A stretch of DNA of 26,196 bases from Methanothermococcus sp. SCGC AD-155-E23 (GCA_019561615.1 JAHEQA010000025.1:1-26196); one strand, 5' to 3'. Numbered from the stretch's first letter, positions 18,903 through 26,196 are shown. The notes: generated by a model from the letters alone, not told the origin. Made by a program: numbers and translations.

Positions 18903-20213
18903 CTATTGATCATGCACCTTTAACACATCTAGCTCCTTACAAACACATCTCTTGTTAAGAATCTCTGAAACTGAGGGGGTGGTTCTACCTTCGTCTCCAC
19001 TTATCAACTCCTTTATGTACAACCCTCCATCACAGTATATCTTAAGTTTGAACCTCTTAGGGTCCACCCTCTCAGTCCACGCCTTGTACACCTTACGGAT
19101 CCTTACCAGATCTGCCCTTCTATGGGATACCCTCTGGGGTGTCCTCTGATAGATGGTTAAATTCTCCAACTTCTTCTCCAACTCTGCAAGCTCCCTGTCG
19201 GAGATCTCCTCCTCACATTCCACAAGTGCCAGATAGGTCTTTTTATGGGGTTTATTTTTAACCTCTATCACATCCTTCTTACTACCGTACTCCAGGTTAA
19301 GTACCTCTACCATCCCACTTTTATTTATCTTCTCCCCTATCTCCTCTAGATTAACCCTTCTAACCTTAGGCTCCCTTATCTCAAGGACAAAAGGTCTTCC
19401 ATCTCCAAGCATCCTCACATCGATATCCTCCCTCCCAGCACCGTGGAAGGCCTCACTTTTACCCTTAAAGGCCTCCAGAAAGGGCCCCGCAATTATCTCC
19501 TCCACAGAGGTACTGTATCTCTTTCCTGTGTAATTACACTTCTCACATCCCTTACCTCTACAGTGGCGACAGGGCCATCTAGTCTGGGGGATACCCCTTA
19601 CCAACTTCCTATACCTTCCCTTTATATAAACAGGTGAAACCTGTAATTTAACCCTCTTCTTATAGGGGTTTATAAGGATAATAATATCTGGGTTTTCCTT
19701 ATCTACCCTCTTAGATGTTTTTTCAGCTATTAATTTCCCCATGGTCCTGTTGAACTCCTGTTTTATACTTTCCATATAGGGTGTTTTTATCTTCTCCTCC
19801 AACTTTTTTATGGACCTGGGAAGTTCAGTTCCAACTAGGAAGGTATCGTACTGGTACTCACTTAGGAGCTTTAACGTTTTCTCCAGGATCTCCTCCAGGT
19901 TCTTCTCCTGGAATATCCCCCTACACCATGGGCATCCCTCCTTCCCTACTACCTCCACACCCTCTATCTCCTTTATCTCTGTTAACCCACTTCTATAGAG
20001 GGTCCTTAACTCTTCCTTTACTTTCTCTATCTCCTCCTCGGCATCAGGTCTCTCCTTAAGTTGTTGCAATTTAGACTCTAACTGGATAGCCTTGGCCATC
20101 TTTATAGATCTACCTCTCTCGTAGTTTGAGGTATGAAGTAACTTAGCGTATAACCTTCCAAAGCACCTGTGACATAGGGGATAACTTTTAAGTATCTCCG
20201 TGTCCATAATCAT
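18903..20213 (-). CDS. pus10: tRNA pseudouridine(54/55) synthase Pus10
   Basis: Zn site LCHRCFGR...CPWC, GRYRKLVRGIPQTRW, catalytic GAGREDIDVRMLG, QRTP-x-RV-x-HRR and GGLYIKELISGD. Confidence 0.96.
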   Translation of the reverse strand: MIMDTEILKSYPLCHRCFGRLYAKLLHTSNYERGRSIKMAKAIQLESKLQQLKERPDAEEEIEKVKEELRTLYRSGLTEIKEIEGVEVVGKEGCPWCRGIFQEKNLEEILEKTLKLLSEYQYDTFLVGTELPRSIKKLEEKIKTPYMESIKQEFNRTMGKLIAEKTSKRVDKENPDIIILINPYKKRVKLQVSPVYIKGRYRKLVRGIPQTRWPCRHCRGKGCEKCNYTGKRYSTSVEEIIAGPFLEAFKGKSEAFHGAGREDIDVRMLGDGRPFVLEIREPKVRRVNLEEIGEKINKSGMVEVLNLEYGSKKDVIEVKNKPHKKTYLALVECEEEISDRELAELEKKLENLTIYQRTPQRVSHRRADLVRIRKVYKAWTERVDPKRFKLKIYCDGGLYIKELISGDEGRTTPSVSEILNKRCVCKELDVLKVHDQ

Positions 20214-20263: not shown

Positions 20264-20647
20264 ATGGAGGTGCAATACGACGATATAAAGTTGGACTTCT
20301 GGACCTTCTTAAAGGAGGCTTACAAGAGAAACATCAAGTTGGATCTTGGTCACTTCATCATACTCATGAAGTTGTTGGAGATAAATAAAGAGTACAGGGA
20401 TCTTATCAAGAGATACGGTAAGAAAAATGCGAGAAAGATAATGGAGGATAAGGGAGTATTCTCCAAGAATTCAGAGTATGTATCTGGGGAGTATCTAAAG
20501 AAATTCATAGGTAGAAGTAGTAGAGGGGCTGTATATTCCAGGATTAAGGATCTTCAATCCCTGGGATTTGAGATAGAGACAAAACCAGGGGCCTTAGGTG
20601 GATACAAGTTACTGAAAACTCCCAAGTGGTTCAAGTTACTGGATTAA
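20264..20647 (+). CDS. Hypothetical protein with C-terminal winged helix-turn-helix (BirA N-terminal/HTH_11-like)
   Basis: GGAG RBS. The C-terminal YVSGEYL...[24 protein letters not shown]...GYKL resembles the BirA wHTH pattern SGE-x-L...SR-x-AV...I-x-x-L...G[YF]-x-I...GY-x-L. Confidence 0.72.
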
Positions 20648-20952
20648 TCCCTGTCGAAGATCTTTTTTATATAGGGTTCAAAGGGTACAATATCCTCCCT
20701 CTTTATAGGGACTATGGTGGCCACCTTCAACACCCTTCTCTCAGGATCTAGATCTATAGTCAAGGTCCCAGGGGTGAGGGTAATACTACATGCCAAAACA
20801 ACCTGGCCTATTAAACTCTCTATCTCAGTTTCTATCTCTACAACTTGAGGGTCTATCTCCCCACATACACATCTCTTTACCACATCCAACCACGCCTCAC
20901 TTAGGGCCTTTGCAAGTACAAAGAGGTACTCTAAAAGGTCCAGGAGTATCAT
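20644..20952 (-). CDS. ehbA: MnhE/MrpE-like membrane subunit, probably energy-converting hydrogenase B subunit A
   Basis: MnhE signature LA[13 protein letters not shown] and FEPYIKKIF; short form with no mrp operon nearby. From memory, Methanococcus ehb genes are scattered and ehbA lies beside the prefoldin alpha gene. Confidence 0.7.
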
Positions 20953-21043: not shown

Positions 21044-21490
21044 ATGAAAAATGAGGAGATTATAAAAAGTGAGGAGGTACAGAAGCAACTTTACAGACTA
21101 GAGGTTTACAAGCAGCAGTTAAATAGATTACAAGAGGAGTTAGGTAGGATTGAACTTCTAAAGTTGGAGATTTTAAAGTCTATAGCATCCATGGAGGGAT
21201 TGAAACAGTCTAAGGAGGTACTTCTACCTCTAGGTGGTGGGACATTTGCAAAGGCTGTAGTAGAGGATAATGAGAAGGTAGTAATAAATGCAGGTGTTGA
21301 CATCTTTGTGGAGAAGCCTGTAGATGATGCTATTAAAGACTTTAAGGAGACCTGTGAGGAGTTGGAGAAGGCTGAGAACAAGATTAAAGAACAGATGGCA
21401 AAAACGTTGGCAGCTATACAACAGCTACAAAAAGAGTTGGAGAGTAAGATAAGTGTAATGGAGAAGGAGCAGGCATCTGAAAGTAGTTAA
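21044..21490 (+). CDS. pfdA: Prefoldin alpha subunit
   Basis: Coiled coil / beta hairpins (EVLLPLGGGTF-x-KA...KVVINAG-x-DIFVEK) / coiled coil, 148 aa. Confidence 0.95.
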   Translation: MKNEEIIKSEEVQKQLYRLEVYKQQLNRLQEELGRIELLKLEILKSIASMEGLKQSKEVLLPLGGGTFAKAVVEDNEKVVINAGVDIFVEKPVDDAIKDFKETCEELEKAENKIKEQMAKTLAAIQQLQKELESKISVMEKEQASESS

Positions 21491-21511
21491 TTCTCTTTTT
21501 TTTTCTTTTTT
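21491..21511 (+). terminator. Oligo-T terminator after pfdA
   Basis: ttctctttttttttcttttt immediately after the pfdA stop, between converging genes. Confidence 0.65.
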
Positions 21512-22469
21512 ATACCAGTTTATTAAATGGATGGTTTTCTACTGGGTTTATACCAAGTTCCTTGGCAGCCTCTGCAATTACTGCATCTGTCATTGCTATT
21601 GCTGGGAATGTTAACTGGGCGTTGTCTATAGGACCGTAGAGGACGAAGTCTCCTACAGCCATGGTCTGGATAATGTTAGCCCCTATATCACATACATGGT
21701 GTACATCCTTTGCAAGTTGTGTATATCCAGCCTCCTTTAACTTCTTTCTAAACTCCCTTAACCAGTCCCATGCAGAGGGTATGTTGTGTATACCACTTCC
21801 CACTGGAAGTCCTAACTTTGCCTTAACTGCAAAGGAGGCCCTTACAGCAGGACCTGCCCCGTTACCTAGAGGTGTAACTGCCACGTCTATCAGGGGGTAC
21901 TCTATACCTGCCCTCTTTGCCAACTCCAACATCCCCACATCTGCAGTTTTACCACCGTTTAACAGTACATTCAACTTACCCTCAACTGAGGGATCCATGG
22001 GGTCAAAACACAGTATAATTGAAGCCTTTATATCACTTTCCACCAGGTTTTGGAATTCCTCTTCCTCCATGGATACGTTGATAGAGTTGTATATACACTG
22101 GTCTGCATATCCAGCCTCTGTAGCTCTCCTTGCGGCAGCCATTCTCGCCTCTCCAGATGTGGAGTCCAGTAACATTGGACCATCCCATACCTCTGCAACG
22201 AAGTCGATATATTTTACCAGTGCCTCTGGTGTCCCTCCAAATACCTGGACAAGGGCAGGGTTTCCAGTAGTGTCCTCCATTTCAGCCTGTTTGTTTATAA
22301 GATCCTCTGCAGCAGCTCTGTCAAATATACCCTTTCTCTCATCCTCTACGATCTTATGTCTTGCATAGAAGATGGTACCTGAGAGACCTGTTGGATACTC
22401 CCCTGGCTGACCTCCAAATTTTCTCCCTGCAATCTCAATTACCATCTGATCCCTGTCAAACTTGAACAT
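21510..22469 (-). CDS. mtrH: Methyl-H4MPT:CoM methyltransferase subunit H
   Basis: MFKFD...GGQPGEYPT-x-L-x-GTIFY, IYNSIN, GSGIHN-x-PSAWDWL and DFVLYGPI. ATG 22469 follows GAGGTGGAG. Confidence 0.97.
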   Translation of the reverse strand: MFKFDRDQMVIEIAGRKFGGQPGEYPTGLSGTIFYARHKIVEDERKGIFDRAAAEDLINKQAEMEDTTGNPALVQVFGGTPEALVKYIDFVAEVWDGPMLLDSTSGEARMAAARRATEAGYADQCIYNSINVSMEEEEFQNLVESDIKASIILCFDPMDPSVEGKLNVLLNGGKTADVGMLELAKRAGIEYPLIDVAVTPLGNGAGPAVRASFAVKAKLGLPVGSGIHNIPSAWDWLREFRKKLKEAGYTQLAKDVHHVCDIGANIIQTMAVGDFVLYGPIDNAQLTFPAIAMTDAVIAEAAKELGINPVENHPFNKLV

Positions 22470-22484
22470 AATCTCCACCTCTTT

Positions 22485-22724
22485 TTACCTCATATGCATC
22501 ATTATCATTACAATACTAGGTATTAACTTCCCCACTATCAGGGTTATTATATAGCCTATGATAAAACCGTATAGGATACCAATGTCTCTACCTATCTTTT
22601 TACCTAACCTCTGCATTATCTCGGCGTTGGTGTTATCTACAATCTCCTCGATCTTATCTAGTTTCTCCATTAACTCCTTGTACTCCTTAGAGGGGGTTAT
22701 TACTGAAGGTGGTTTTTCTACCAT
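22485..22724 (-). CDS. mtrG: Mtr subunit G
   Basis: KLDKIEE-x-V...AEI-x-QR-x-GKKIGRDIGILYG plus a TM helix. Confidence 0.96.
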   Translation of the reverse strand: MVEKPPSVITPSKEYKELMEKLDKIEEIVDNTNAEIMQRLGKKIGRDIGILYGFIIGYIITLIVGKLIPSIVMIMMHMR

Positions 22725-22728
22725 TTAA

Positions 22729-23454
22729 TCACCCTAGAAGTACCTTTAAAACTACAGGTATCCCAACTAACACCATGGCCAGGATAGATCCCAGGATGAC
22801 ACCTAGGAGGGATCTTGACTGTATTCCAGAACTTAACCCTAGGTCCCTTGTCATCAACCCTACCTTGTACTCAAGGGATTCTATAAGTTTTTGTGTAAAC
22901 TCCATATCTGGTTTTGCAACTGTTGGCAATCCCCCCTCTTTTTTCTCCAGGTCTATCTCCTCTGCATCCTCCTCTGTGGCTCCAGGATCTTTAGATATAC
23001 ATTCCTTTATAGCCTGGGTTATCTTATCTATATCCTCTACATCTATTAGGTCTATCACTTCTACTATCTGTCTCTGGAATCTCTCAACTGCATCCTTTCC
23101 AACGTTTTCCAGGAAGGGTATTGCTCCCTTTGCCCCTATGATACATCCGTCGTCTCCAATTCCATTTTCATAGAGGGCCTTGAAACACTGACCTGTAAGA
23201 TGACCCTGTACCTCTGAACCACAGAGTATCATAAACCTTATGTTTGGATTTGAGATGTAGTTTGCAATTACCTTTTCAATTCCAAGGTTCTCAGTATGGC
23301 ATGGACCTGCAATGGCTGCTCCAGCCTCAACTGCAGCCTGTTCCAAACCATGGGATCCTAGTGTAACAACCCCCACACAACTCTCTGGATTTCCCACTAC
23401 ATACTCCCCACTTACAATAGGCCATCCTGGAGCAGGTTCTCTCTTCTCAACCAT
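22729..23454 (-). CDS. mtrA: MtrA-MtrF fusion (corrinoid-binding domain plus MtrF stalk/anchor)
   Basis: Residues 1 to about 170 are the MtrA soluble domain ([32 protein letters not shown] with the His85 cobalt ligand). From about residue 174 (nt 22935) the sequence is MtrF-like (P-x-V-x-KP...[11 protein letters not shown]-x-x-L-x-SG plus TM). It occupies the mtrF slot, and no separate mtrF is present. Confidence 0.92.
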
Positions 23455-23466
23455 TCTCCCACCTCC

Positions 23467-23787
23467 TTATAACAACAGTGAGAATACCAACATTGAGAGA
23501 AATAACCCAATAGCTATACCTTGAATCTTCCCGTTGTAGTATCCCGAGTTAAACTTTGAGATAAGGGCTGCGTCGTTTATCTTCTCGTATATTATCTTTA
23601 TCCTAGCCTCCAACAGTGCCAACTCAGGTGAGTAGGGTTTTACAGTGGCAGTGTCTTCCTCCTCCTGTCCTCCCCCACCTTCCAAGTCTAGGATCATAGG
23701 TTCCTCGTCAATTGCCCCAGGGTTTTCAAGGGCGATGTCTTTCATATAAGGCCATATAAACTCAATACCTTCTGATAGATCCACCAT
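23467..23787 (-). CDS. mtrA: N-terminally truncated MtrA (linker, stalk and TM anchor only; no corrinoid domain)
   Basis: [17 protein letters not shown]...PE-x-ALLEAR...[29 protein letters not shown] is the MtrA C-terminus. It sits in the canonical slot after mtrB, with a GGGGGTG RBS, an ATG, and only 26 bp to the mtrB stop. Confidence 0.9.
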
Positions 23788-23813
23788 CTACAGCACCCCC
23801 AAAAAGTTAAGGA

Positions 23814-24137
23814 TTAGTAGAGTAGGTTGGGATAGAGGGTAATAAGTAGGATTATAACAAGAAGGGTTATTGCCATGGTTATCCAGAAACCGAAGAATAC
23901 CCCCTGGAAGATACCCCCTATACTGTATACTCCTTCCCTTCCTGGGTAGGTCTTTAAAGGAGGATTTCTTGGATCTAGGGAGTTTTCAAAGGCCTTGGCC
24001 AGTTTCTCCAACTCCTCCACCTTCTCCCTAACAGGGTTTAGATCCACCATTACAATGTCCTCTCTAACCTCTGCGATTAACCCTGAATCCACATCCATCA
24101 CTATTCCCAACTCGGGACATATCTTCACTATATCCAT
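23814..24137 (-). CDS. mtrB: Mtr subunit B
   Basis: VKICPE-x-x-IVMD-x-x-SG, NSLDP...YPGREG and a C-terminal TM helix. GGTGA RBS. Confidence 0.96.
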
Positions 24138-24146
24138 TAAATCACC

Positions 24147-24959
24147 TTACATCTCTCTCTTAGGTAACTCTGGGGTGTAGTATACAGCACAGGCATCCTT
24201 TAACGACTGTTTTATGAATTCCCTGTATACTAGGGCCCAGAGTACTAGGGAGACTACAGTGGATATTACATCCAACTTGGCAACTGAGAATACAAACCAT
24301 GTTAGGAATCCACAGGCAACTGCCAAAGTTAACGTCCTCCTATGACTTTCATCAGGACCTAGACATGCGTTAAAGGGATGGAGTATAGCCATACCTGCTG
24401 CAATAAATGCCAAGGCCATAACCCCATTTTTTATGGAACCTGGGATTATAATATCTGGCAGAAATCCACCTGCATAGGCTGCACAGAATCCAAGAATTGA
24501 GAGGGCCCCCATAAGGGACAACTTAGTCATACTTTCAACCATTACAGGGATCTTCATCCCAATAGGCTTTACAGTGAGCCTACCTACTATATACCCCAGG
24601 ATCAGTGCTATTACTGTCACCACTATTGGAATAGCGTAGAGTACCAGGGCATCCACTTTGAAGTACTTTACCAGTGCATTTACCAGGTATATCCCAGATA
24701 CCGAGGATATTATACCCATTCCTAAACTTAGCATACCTATAGATGGTACCCCAGTTCCCAGTCCATAGGCTGCAACCTTTCTAGTGGTATTTGCACCTGC
24801 AACGGTAGCTGCAGAGGCCAGTAGACCTCCCAACAACATAGACACCTGTGGGAAGAACTGGGCTATATACATCCCCAAGATTGCAAGTAAGGTACCTACT
24901 GCCACTATCTGATTCTCAGGGTATAGTTCTGCAGCATGTCCTCCAGCAGCATGACTCAT
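24147..24959 (-). CDS. mtrC: Mtr subunit C
   Basis: [21 protein letters not shown] and [16 protein letters not shown]-x-RTL. Confidence 0.97.
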
Positions 24960-24978: not shown

Positions 24979-25686
24979 TTAAATCCCCAGGGACATTAAA
25001 ACTACTATAACCCCTGTTAGTAGAGAGGCTACAAAGGAGGCAATAATTCCATTTGGTATCTTCTTGAACTTGGGATCGTGGAACCCCTCTATAGTACCTC
25101 CTATGTTATAGGATGCAAGAACTGCATTCATAAAGAAGAACCCTACTGCTATAGTTCCAGCAATCTCTGGAGAGAAACCTAACTGTATAAGGGCGACGTA
25201 GGCGAGAGCCCCTCCTATACCTCCCAAGGCCGCCCCTATCAATCCACTGATAAAACATACTGTAGGTACCCCATGTCCTGTAGTACCTGGGGTGATGTAG
25301 GGCTTTTGATAGTCCCCTGTAATAGGATCCCTTTCACACTTGTCAGCCGCTGGAACTACCCCTACCCCAAAGACGTATATCAACTGACCCATTAACATGG
25401 TTAAACCTAACATGATCATGGAACCAACTGCTCCTGAGAGTAGGATGATAGCCCAGTGTAGGGGGTTGAATATATTAACCCCACTTTGAGCAGCTATTGT
25501 TGCAGCAGCCATTAAACCTGTAAATCCAGCCCCAGCTGCCAGCTGGGTTGTACCTGTACCTATACCTGTGGAGGTAGCCATAGCTGCAGGAGCCCCACCA
25601 ACTGGAACAAAGTGAACACTTGCATTAATTATGGCACCTGCCAAGGTGATCTCTACAAAGGGGATTAACATACTTAAAAAATCCAT
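24979..25686 (-). CDS. mtrD: Mtr subunit D
   Basis: [32 protein letters not shown]-x-Q-x-x-Y-x-TPGT-x-GHG and [20 protein letters not shown] 25686 follows GGTGA (alternative GTG 25698). Confidence 0.97.
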
Positions 25687-25701
25687 CCCTATCACCACTT
25701 C

Positions 25702-26196
25702 TTACCTATTGGTGTATGGCCCGTACTTTTTCCTTGCATATACCTCAACTAACCTGTTTAGACATGCTGTAAGAGCCACTATCACTATACCTACGATAAT
25801 GGCGATTATGGACTTTACAATTATATCTCCCTGGATAACGTTTCCAAGGAGAGTACCTATTAAACCTCTCCAACCATCTAGGAATACTATCAAACCAAAG
25901 GTAAGCCCTGTTAAAGGACCTCCCAACTTGGAGCAGAAGTAGGAGGAATCCATACTGTTCCTAATACCTACCTCTGCCTTGATATCAATATCCCCCTGGT
26001 TTGCAACGGGAACACCACCACCAAAGGGATACTTCTGATACTCCCTCTCGGCACCGTAGTGGACATCTCCAGTGGATGAACCTATAGCCCCTACTGTAAT
26101 ACCGAAGATCAGTGCTATCAGTGGTAGTGGGAAGGGATTACCTAACATGGTAGTTGCCAAATAGGCTGCCAGTAGCATACAGAATACTGCAATGAA
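25702..26196 (-). CDS. mtrE: Mtr subunit E, C-terminal part (start lies outside the window)
   Basis: The frame is open to the window edge (FIAVFCMLL...). GAIGSSTGDVHYGAEREYQ, RNSMD-x-x-YFC-x-K-x-GGP-x-TG and ARKKYGPY. Confidence 0.96.
   Translation of the reverse strand, partial: FIAVFCMLLAAYLATTMLGNPFPLPLIALIFGITVGAIGSSTGDVHYGAEREYQKYPFGGGVPVANQGDIDIKAEVGIRNSMDSSYFCSKLGGPLTGLTFGLIVFLDGWRGLIGTLLGNVIQGDIIVKSIIAIIVGIVIVALTACLNRLVEVYARKKYGPYTNR

Follow-up and report, generated by a model that had tools for sequence, protein, structure and literature searches.

A probably functional mtrA gene without its corrinoid domain beside an MtrA-MtrF fusion in a Methanothermococcus genome

Hydrogenotrophic methanogenesis has one energy-conserving membrane step in common, Mtr. 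In the solved complex, the C-terminal helices of MtrA (MtrAc) assemble as a trimer at the core of the Mtr(ABFG)3 stalk, in contact with MtrE, with ProA185, AlaA188 and AlaA192 as the first layers of the three-helix bundle (PMC10998594). At its cytoplasmic tip, the stalk has a short beta-sheet unit formed by the N-termini of MtrAc and MtrF, which are close to each other there (PMC10998594). In the M. mazei complex, the C-terminal helices of MtrA are likewise placed at the centre of the stalk (PMC12774963). For Methanococcales, Wang et al. (2015) described a pair of genes, mtrA-1 and mtrA-2a, and the gene conversion that this pair undergoes (PMC4632066).

MtrA has also been described as a substrate of the enzyme Connectase (DUF2121), which binds it at (5)KDPGA(10), cuts between Asp and Pro, keeps the N-terminal part bound to its own N-terminus through an amide, and then ligates the bound part to any N-terminus bearing PGA(10) (PMC7980362). 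Positions P4'-P13' of the recognition sequence are read very specifically and P7-P2 loosely (PMC11745163). In the crystal structure of M. jannaschii MtrA, the stretch that corresponds to P1'-P13' folds back on the corrinoid core (PMC4915002). The biological role of Connectase was called under study in 2021, and a paper of December 2025 mentions the enzyme solely as a possible repair enzyme.

The window analysed here is a stretch of 26,196 nucleotides from Methanothermococcus sp. SCGC AD-155-E23 (GCA_019561615.1 JAHEQA010000025.1:1-26196). It carries an mtr operon with the following features:

25702 to 26196, minus strand: mtrE, 3' part only, cut by the end of the window (PF04206 positions 134-271)
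24979 to 25698, minus strand: mtrD (PF04207, E 3.9e-89)
24147 to 24959, minus strand: mtrC (PF04211, E 9.9e-92)
23814 to 24137, minus strand: mtrB (PF05440, E 5.5e-35)
23794 to 23800, minus strand: Shine-Dalgarno-like GGGGGTG, 6 nt 5' of the ATG of the head-less ORF, within the spacer that follows mtrB
23467 to 23787, minus strand: head-less mtrA-1, 106 aa (TIGR01111 positions 139-238; 8q3v_A residues 142-236, E 2.7e-15)
22729 to 23454, minus strand: MtrA-MtrF fusion of the mtrA-2a type, 241 aa (PF04208 at 4-173, MtrF PF09472 at 175-236)
22485 to 22724, minus strand: mtrG (PF04210, E 2.2e-27)
21510 to 22478, minus strand: mtrH (PF02007, E 1e-148)

Next to the operon, a Pus10 pseudouridine synthase with THUMP and Pus10_C domains (18903-20213, minus strand) and a prefoldin subunit (21044-21490, plus strand) are ordinary neighbours. 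A 102-aa ORF at 20644-20952 (minus strand) matches the MNHE (Na+/H+ antiporter subunit E) profile only at positions 43-122 of 145; this short or truncated form is a solitary gene, flanked by an HTH gene and a prefoldin gene.

The gene order E, D, C, B, head-less A, A-F fusion, G, H puts the 106-aa ORF where mtrA is expected, between mtrB and mtrF of mtrEDCBAFGH. A 26-nt spacer (23788-23813) lies between the end of mtrB at 23814 and the ORF, and the TAA stop of the ORF (23467-23469) directly adjoins the GGAGGTG ribosome-binding site of the next gene. The TIGR01111 mtrA profile covers the ORF only with positions 139-238 of 238 (E 5.6e-25), scoring 88.3 bits against a cut-off of 249.15, and Pfam MtrA (PF04208) matches it weakly at positions 136-172 with 15.4 bits against a cut-off of 25. 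By alignment, the cobamide-binding Rossmann-type domain with the His84/85 cobalt ligand is absent, and the C-terminal juxtamembrane segment and the single membrane/stalk helix (MtrAc) are present. From its N-terminus, the ORF product consists of a remnant, a motif of the Connectase type, a linker and the MtrAc stalk/membrane helix.

In the solved complexes, the retained part has a clear counterpart. Residues 9-105 align to residues 142-236 of 8q3v_A and residues 142-237 of 9qtq_A (E about 1e-15), the latter chain being taken by us as that of the M. mazei complex. P54, A57 and A61 correspond to ProA185, AlaA188 and AlaA192 of 8q3v_A, the residues of the first bundle layers. These results agree with several points of an earlier reading made from the sequence alone (hereafter the sequence-only reading): the coordinates of a 106-aa ORF with its own ribosome-binding site 26 bp from mtrB were reproduced; its NPGA at residues 22-25 does align with DPGA 156-159 of both full-length MtrA and the fusion; and the stalk part that it called conserved corresponds to the stalk-core helix MtrAc.

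The gene next to the head-less ORF has the features of mtrA-2a as defined by Wang et al. (2015), namely PF04208 followed by PF09472, with a TIGR02507 match at residues 175-239. Its residues 1-170 align with the crystallised M. jannaschii MtrA domain (5l8x; 98% alignable, E 6e-98), and His85 is present in the motif EVQGH. KDPGA occurs at residues 155-159 (22978-22992), followed by a degenerate primed side of 12 residues and a short tether. The fusion is the sole corrinoid-domain gene found in the assembly to which the window belongs (51 contigs, 86% complete), and no further mtrA match was found in that assembly. The proposal that the neighbouring fusion supplies the corrinoid domain is thereby borne out, as it has the MtrA and MtrF domains, His85 and the only corrinoid domain found. 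With the cobamide domain encoded only on an MtrF anchor, the fusion must be competent, whether it carries the domain or donates it. It is plausible that a head is tethered to MtrF, since the N-termini of MtrAc and MtrF are adjacent at the stalk tip.

The arrangement is not confined to one genome. A partial mtrA with the fusion and no full-length copy was found in 7 of 40 Methanococcales species genomes (G000, G011, G009, G005, G004, G002 and G008), which make up one genus and include a single-contig genome (G005) and one in five contigs (G004). The head-less proteins are 106-127 aa long. Among 30 genomes whose operons were inspected ORF by ORF, the layout is B-A-F in 10, B-A-AF in 12, B-headless A-AF in 7 and B-AF only in one (G026); these counts leave out five further genomes with matches (G015, where the operon is split over contig ends, G028, G029, G031 and G032). 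Ten more protein clusters of the short form, 105-129 aa long and built alike, are present in metagenome collections, all without a name. The wider 'phylum' search covered 38 genomes, all of them Methanococcales and none of the Methanomicrobiales, which have an MtrA-G fusion.

A head-less gene could also arise on paper, if an assembler merged two near-identical mtrA copies. The two corrinoid domains are protein-identical within the genome in 9 of 12 related genomes, and such repeats can collapse. However, a collapse would take out MtrAc along with one head, and an in-frame remnant with MtrAc behind it is not what it would produce; moreover, the same arrangement is found in seven species genomes, including one single-contig genome. 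The junctions themselves are bridged by contigs of other runs. At the mtrB/ORF junction, colinear contigs come from four other vent-metagenome runs (X3 and X4, 23613-23991; X6, 23669-24053; X8, 23739-23907), and the ORF/fusion junction is crossed by X3 (23419-23600) and X6 (23439-23601), with no joints reported in these contigs over either junction. The four runs represent three studies, and the source sample may itself belong to one of these. The seven genomes and the bridging contigs thus dispose of the collapse that the sequence-only reading had considered, and we regard it as extremely improbable.

Two genomes outside the head-less group deserve mention. In G026, a single-contig genome of the Methanocaldococcus family, the reverse strand of locus L033 (G026:C1:1047500-1052500) reads mtrC, mtrB, a partial mtrC (188 aa), a second mtrB, the MtrA-F fusion, mtrG and mtrH, and no MtrAc-encoding gene was found in this genome by the 106-aa query or by TIGR01111. 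Its sister, G027, has mtrA-1 and the fusion. The fusion-only operon could have arisen by recombination between two identical heads, or could be an assembly problem; because of the odd mtrC'-mtrB duplication, the assembly of G026 needs checking. If it is right, MtrAc may not be indispensable everywhere. The second genome, G012 (locus L026), has the same genus label as the window, yet its mtr genes fall with those of the Methanocaldococcus family on a long branch; its MtrB is only 40% identical to that of the window, and its layout is plain B-A-F.

Short MtrA-like proteins were also encountered in other lineages, with 16 matches of 73-110 aa in a representative protein library. Two of them, P0015 and P0016, lie on long contigs. 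P0015 led to 34 loci of Methanotrichaceae/Methanosarcinales, 14 of which were inspected; ten carry full-length frames of 245-255 aa, one carries a frame of 325 aa, and in three MAG contigs (L069, L080 and L099) the mtrA frames are broken or shortened. Based on the 14 loci inspected, these short proteins were rejected as true head-less forms and are read as gene calls from internal Met codons on frame-disrupted or cut genes. The broken frames probably explain P0015, and perhaps P0016, among the 'MtrA' proteins of 109-110 aa.

The history of the deletion can be followed within the head-less genus. In a tree of MtrC, MtrB and MtrG, the seven head-less genomes form one clade (SH-aLRT 99), and the nearest outgroups, the sister genomes G010 and G006, have mtrA-1 and the fusion in the B-A-AF layout. 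The longest head-less proteins (127-129 aa) belong to the basal genomes G002 and G008 and to three metagenome relatives. Residues 1-21 of the G002 protein align to residues 1-22 of MtrA with 10 identities, and a gap follows over MtrA residues 23-130, beyond which the last helix of the corrinoid domain persists in degraded form. The global alignment of G008 places the residues differently, though the same N-terminal similarity is visible. The length of the head-less gene is divisible by three in all seven genomes. From these alignments, we conclude that the event was a single in-frame internal deletion of about 108 codons with the original start kept, and that in the sub-clade of the window later in-frame deletions trimmed what was left of the domain to about 20 residues. 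The sequence-only reading had counted about 134 N-terminal residues as missing; the loss of the corrinoid domain stands, and what it took for an N-terminal truncation is an in-frame internal deletion, as the basal relatives keep about 21 N-terminal residues. Its view that the deletion is old is upheld, given the single clade (SH-aLRT 99) and synonymous sites that are near saturation between sub-clades.

A separate observation concerns the tree of corrinoid domains, in which the fusion heads of G000, G011, G009, G005 and G004 group with Methanocaldococcus-type heads (SH-aLRT 99) and do not group with those of G002 and G008 or of the sister genomes. This domain is short and highly conserved, and the grouping is possibly convergence or an artefact.

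Selection on the operon was estimated as dN/dS by the Nei-Gojobori method (NG86) over the 21 pairs of the seven related genomes, which are not independent and of which the deep ones are saturated. Over the last 84-86 codons of the head-less ORF, dN/dS is 0.021-0.091 (17 of 21 pairs computable, four being saturated in dS), and the N-terminal remnant has 0.136-0.833 (16 computable pairs). The corresponding values are 0.032-0.115 for the fusion (21 pairs), 0.047-0.208 for mtrB (15 computable pairs), 0.048-0.220 for mtrG (17 computable pairs) and 0.029-0.189 for mtrC (21 pairs), so the conserved part of the head-less ORF has dN/dS as low as that of the neighbouring mtr genes. Along the ORF, pN/pS was summed over the pairs, which again are not independent, and the contrast within this one small gene is large:

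23740 to 23787, minus strand: residues 1-16, decayed remnant of the deleted domain (pN/pS 0.69; indels all in frame)
23722 to 23739, minus strand: residues 17-22, D-I-A-L-E-N, positions P6-P1 before the Connectase cleavage site (pN/pS 0.25)
23683 to 23721, minus strand: residues 23-35, 13 residues that form the primed half P1'-P13' of the Connectase recognition sequence (pN/pS 0.045)
23641 to 23682, minus strand: residues 36-49, Glu/Gly-rich flexible linker (pN/pS 0.24)
23470 to 23640, minus strand: residues 50-106, short strand segment and long helix, the equivalent of MtrAc as stalk core and membrane anchor (pN/pS 0.11)

The remnant at residues 1-16 is variable and rich in indels among relatives. 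The lowest value (0.045, with pS 0.75) belongs to the primed half-site and not to the stalk helix; for comparison, the corrinoid domain of the fusion has a pN/pS of 0.067.

These numbers bear on whether the ORF is a decaying pseudogene or an untranslated relic of mtrA-1, as the loss of the catalytic domain with its His ligand and the near-neutral residues 1-16 might suggest. Such decay is contradicted by a dN/dS of 0.02-0.09 across 84-86 codons at dS up to saturation, by the lack of any frameshift or stop in seven genomes and ten more metagenome clusters, and by a ribosome-binding site that is kept in an ORF tightly coupled to the next gene. We consider a relic very unlikely. The sequence-only reading had named a dN/dS well below 1 as the mark of function and had argued for retention under selection rather than a fresh pseudogene; both are in line with the values above and with frames that stay open among relatives.

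The 106-aa ORF is best explained as a functional head-less mtrA-1 whose product supplies MtrAc as the core of the stalk, the cobamide domain being encoded on no other anchor than MtrF, and we put the probability of this reading at roughly 0.85. The ancestor would have had the known Methanococcales pair, mtrA-1 and the MtrA-MtrF fusion (mtrA-2a). One in-frame deletion of about 108 codons then took out the corrinoid domain of mtrA-1, with start codon, ribosome-binding site and reading frame surviving. The remaining part would be translated and would still assemble as the MtrAc trimer at the stalk core in contact with MtrE, and the cobamide-carrying domain would now be encoded on the MtrF anchor alone. 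We infer that the head-less subunit assembles in the stalk and that a complex with this set of subunits is active.

The sequence-only reading went one step further and regarded the subunit as purely structural, which is doubtful, because a bare stalk helix needs no half-site, fixed linker, Asn22 or Connectase, and all four are retained. The search of the PDB with the fusion matched 6zw0_C, a 30-residue MtrA peptide of the Connectase complex, over the stretch of the fusion that is homologous to residues 23-35 of the head-less subunit. On the primed side, PGA and the roughly ten specific residues after it are present in the head-less subunit, and the 13 residues agree with the full-length MtrA consensus of Methanococcales; P1'-P13' is invariant in 12 of 12 sequences except at P4' and P7'. 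The Lys-Asp of P2-P1 is absent from the head-less subunit, which has Glu/Asp-Asn in all 12 sequences, and is kept by the fusion. Asn22 at P1 is invariant in these 12 sequences despite AAC/AAT codon variation, whereas P1 is invariantly Asp in 19 fusions and 21 full-length MtrA, and at P6-P2 the clade has a pattern of its own, (D/E)-I-x-(L/F)-(E/D). NPGA and KPYSPE are 24 residues apart in all seven head-less genomes, against 23-25 in 22 full-length MtrA. In the fusion of the head-less clade, ECISKD|PGA is kept with a degenerate primed side, and the tether is 16-19 residues long, against 28-30 in 13 other fusions. Full-length Connectase matches were obtained in 38 of 40 Methanococcales genomes and in six of the seven of the head-less clade, where the Ser1 nucleophile is kept and dN/dS is 0.05-0.13 (7 of 15 pairs computable). 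The family (PF09894) was not found in the 120 contigs of G011 (99% complete by markers); this genome, the closest relative of that of the window, also has a head-less mtrA. Because the juxtamembrane stretch and the linker are so strongly constrained, the head-less subunit probably still engages Connectase, a corrinoid domain, or both.

What form this engagement takes is a matter for more tentative proposals. One is that Connectase re-joins the split MtrA at the protein level, placing the head from the fusion onto the head-less stalk. The enzyme would cut the fusion at KD|PGA and carry the corrinoid domain as an acyl-enzyme intermediate, the leader of the head-less subunit would be removed at Asn22|Pro23, and the corrinoid domain would be ligated to the resulting PGA(10) N-terminus. 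The products would be a canonical full-length MtrA, which no gene encodes, and a near-canonical MtrF, and the head-less gene would be the acceptor half, its PGA(10)-linker-MtrAc serving as an acceptor of high affinity. An intact primed half on the head-less subunit and an intact KD|PGA with a poor primed side on the fusion make the two half-sites complementary, and the half kept on the head-less subunit, at pN/pS 0.045, is the one that Connectase reads most specifically according to the published work on its recognition (PMC11745163, PMC7980362). The canonical 24-residue linker in 7 of 7 head-less proteins, the shrunken tether of the fusion and the intact Connectase under selection in six of the seven genomes fit as well, and Fuchs et al. 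propose that the role of Connectase is to recombine two motif-bearing proteins (PMC7980362). However, P1 is Asn and not Asp, and no data on Asn at P1 or on the cleavage of Asn-Pro by Connectase were found in the literature. The Glu residues at P9' and P10' may make the fusion a poor substrate, as binding is described as dependent on KDPGA(10) (PMC7980362, PMC11745163). Connectase is missing from the matches in G011, and enzyme affinity by itself shifts no equilibrium. On balance, re-joining is a possible but rather doubtful account of the conserved stretch.

Alternatively, the conserved stretch might bind the corrinoid domain of the fusion non-covalently in trans, giving the cobamide stability and keeping the domain on the canonical tether. 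Wagner et al. reported that residues 156-170 of MtrA pack on the core domain via salt bridges and hydrophobic contacts, and that removal of the juxtamembrane segment cut the cobalamin content to <50% (PMC4915002). The hydrophobic P-M-I-L of this stretch is lost from the fusion and kept by the head-less subunit, and the fixed linker length is also in keeping with docking; the invariant Asn22 and the conserved P6-P2 pattern are, however, left unexplained by it, and we think docking unlikely. Some other Connectase- or Mtr-related contact comes third after these two. A prediction of the complex between residues 1-174 of the fusion and residues 1-46 of the head-less subunit, run without controls, scored 0.00 and counts neither for nor against docking, and the AlphaFold2 models, with a mean pLDDT of 37 for the fusion (19-row alignment) and 47 for full-length MtrA (21 rows), are too poor for a comparison of tail packing.

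The head-less clade is a natural experiment in three respects. First, with a canonical MtrA beside it, the fusion had been of unclear function, and here it is the only gene found with the cobamide domain. Second, an MtrAc helix kept under strong selection without its head fits the stalk-core role seen in cryo-EM structures. Third, a subunit that has no head keeps a half-site for Connectase, an Asn-Pro that does not vary and a linker of exact length, which makes this clade of deep-sea methane-making archaea a natural test case for the function of Connectase. In other methanogens, the proposed products of recombination are indistinguishable from the substrates. If re-joining were true, substrates and products would differ in size (mass) in the head-less clade, and the physiological role of Connectase would therefore be directly observable there.

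Literature searches found no published description of a head-less mtrA, although the supplements of Fuchs et al. and Wang et al. may show more; in the main text of Wang et al. (2015), supplement apart, the terms 'truncat', 'deletion' and 'pseudogene' have no match (PMC4632066).

Among the closest known systems is the mtrA-1/mtrA-2a pair of Methanococcales as described in PMC4632066. It shares the operon layout (B, A-1, A-F fusion, G, H), and the sister genomes carry the exact pair, with corrinoid domains that are protein-identical within the genome in 9 of 12. In the head-less clade, in contrast, mtrA-1 has lost its head, which rules out further gene conversion between the copies, and the tail and tether of the fusion have diverged (16-19 vs 28-30 residues). 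Compared with canonical MtrA (TIGR01111; 8Q3V chain A of M. marburgensis; 9QTQ chain A), the head-less subunit has the same operon position after mtrB, and its juxtamembrane stretch, 24-residue Glu/Gly linker and C-terminal stalk/membrane helix are homologous. It differs in lacking residues from about 23 to 130-155, that is, the whole Rossmann-type cobamide domain with His84/85, and in having Glu-Asn where canonical MtrA has Lys-Asp before PGA.

The known Connectase substrates contain (5)KDPGA(10) (Fuchs et al. 2021, PMC7980362; 6ZW0), and the head-less subunit resembles them in its PGA and the ten residues that match the Methanococcales motif. Here, by contrast, the halves of a good site lie on two different proteins, and P1 of the head-less subunit is Asn; the paralogues listed in the main text of that study have MtrA, MtrF or MtrG anchors or a soluble tail, with no head-less anchor among them (PMC7980362). 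Finally, the cytoplasmic MtrA homologues discussed by Wagner et al. (2016) are also partial MtrA proteins kept alongside the complex, and they are the mirror image of the present subunit, since in them the cobamide domain is kept and the juxtamembrane and membrane segments are absent (PMC4915002).
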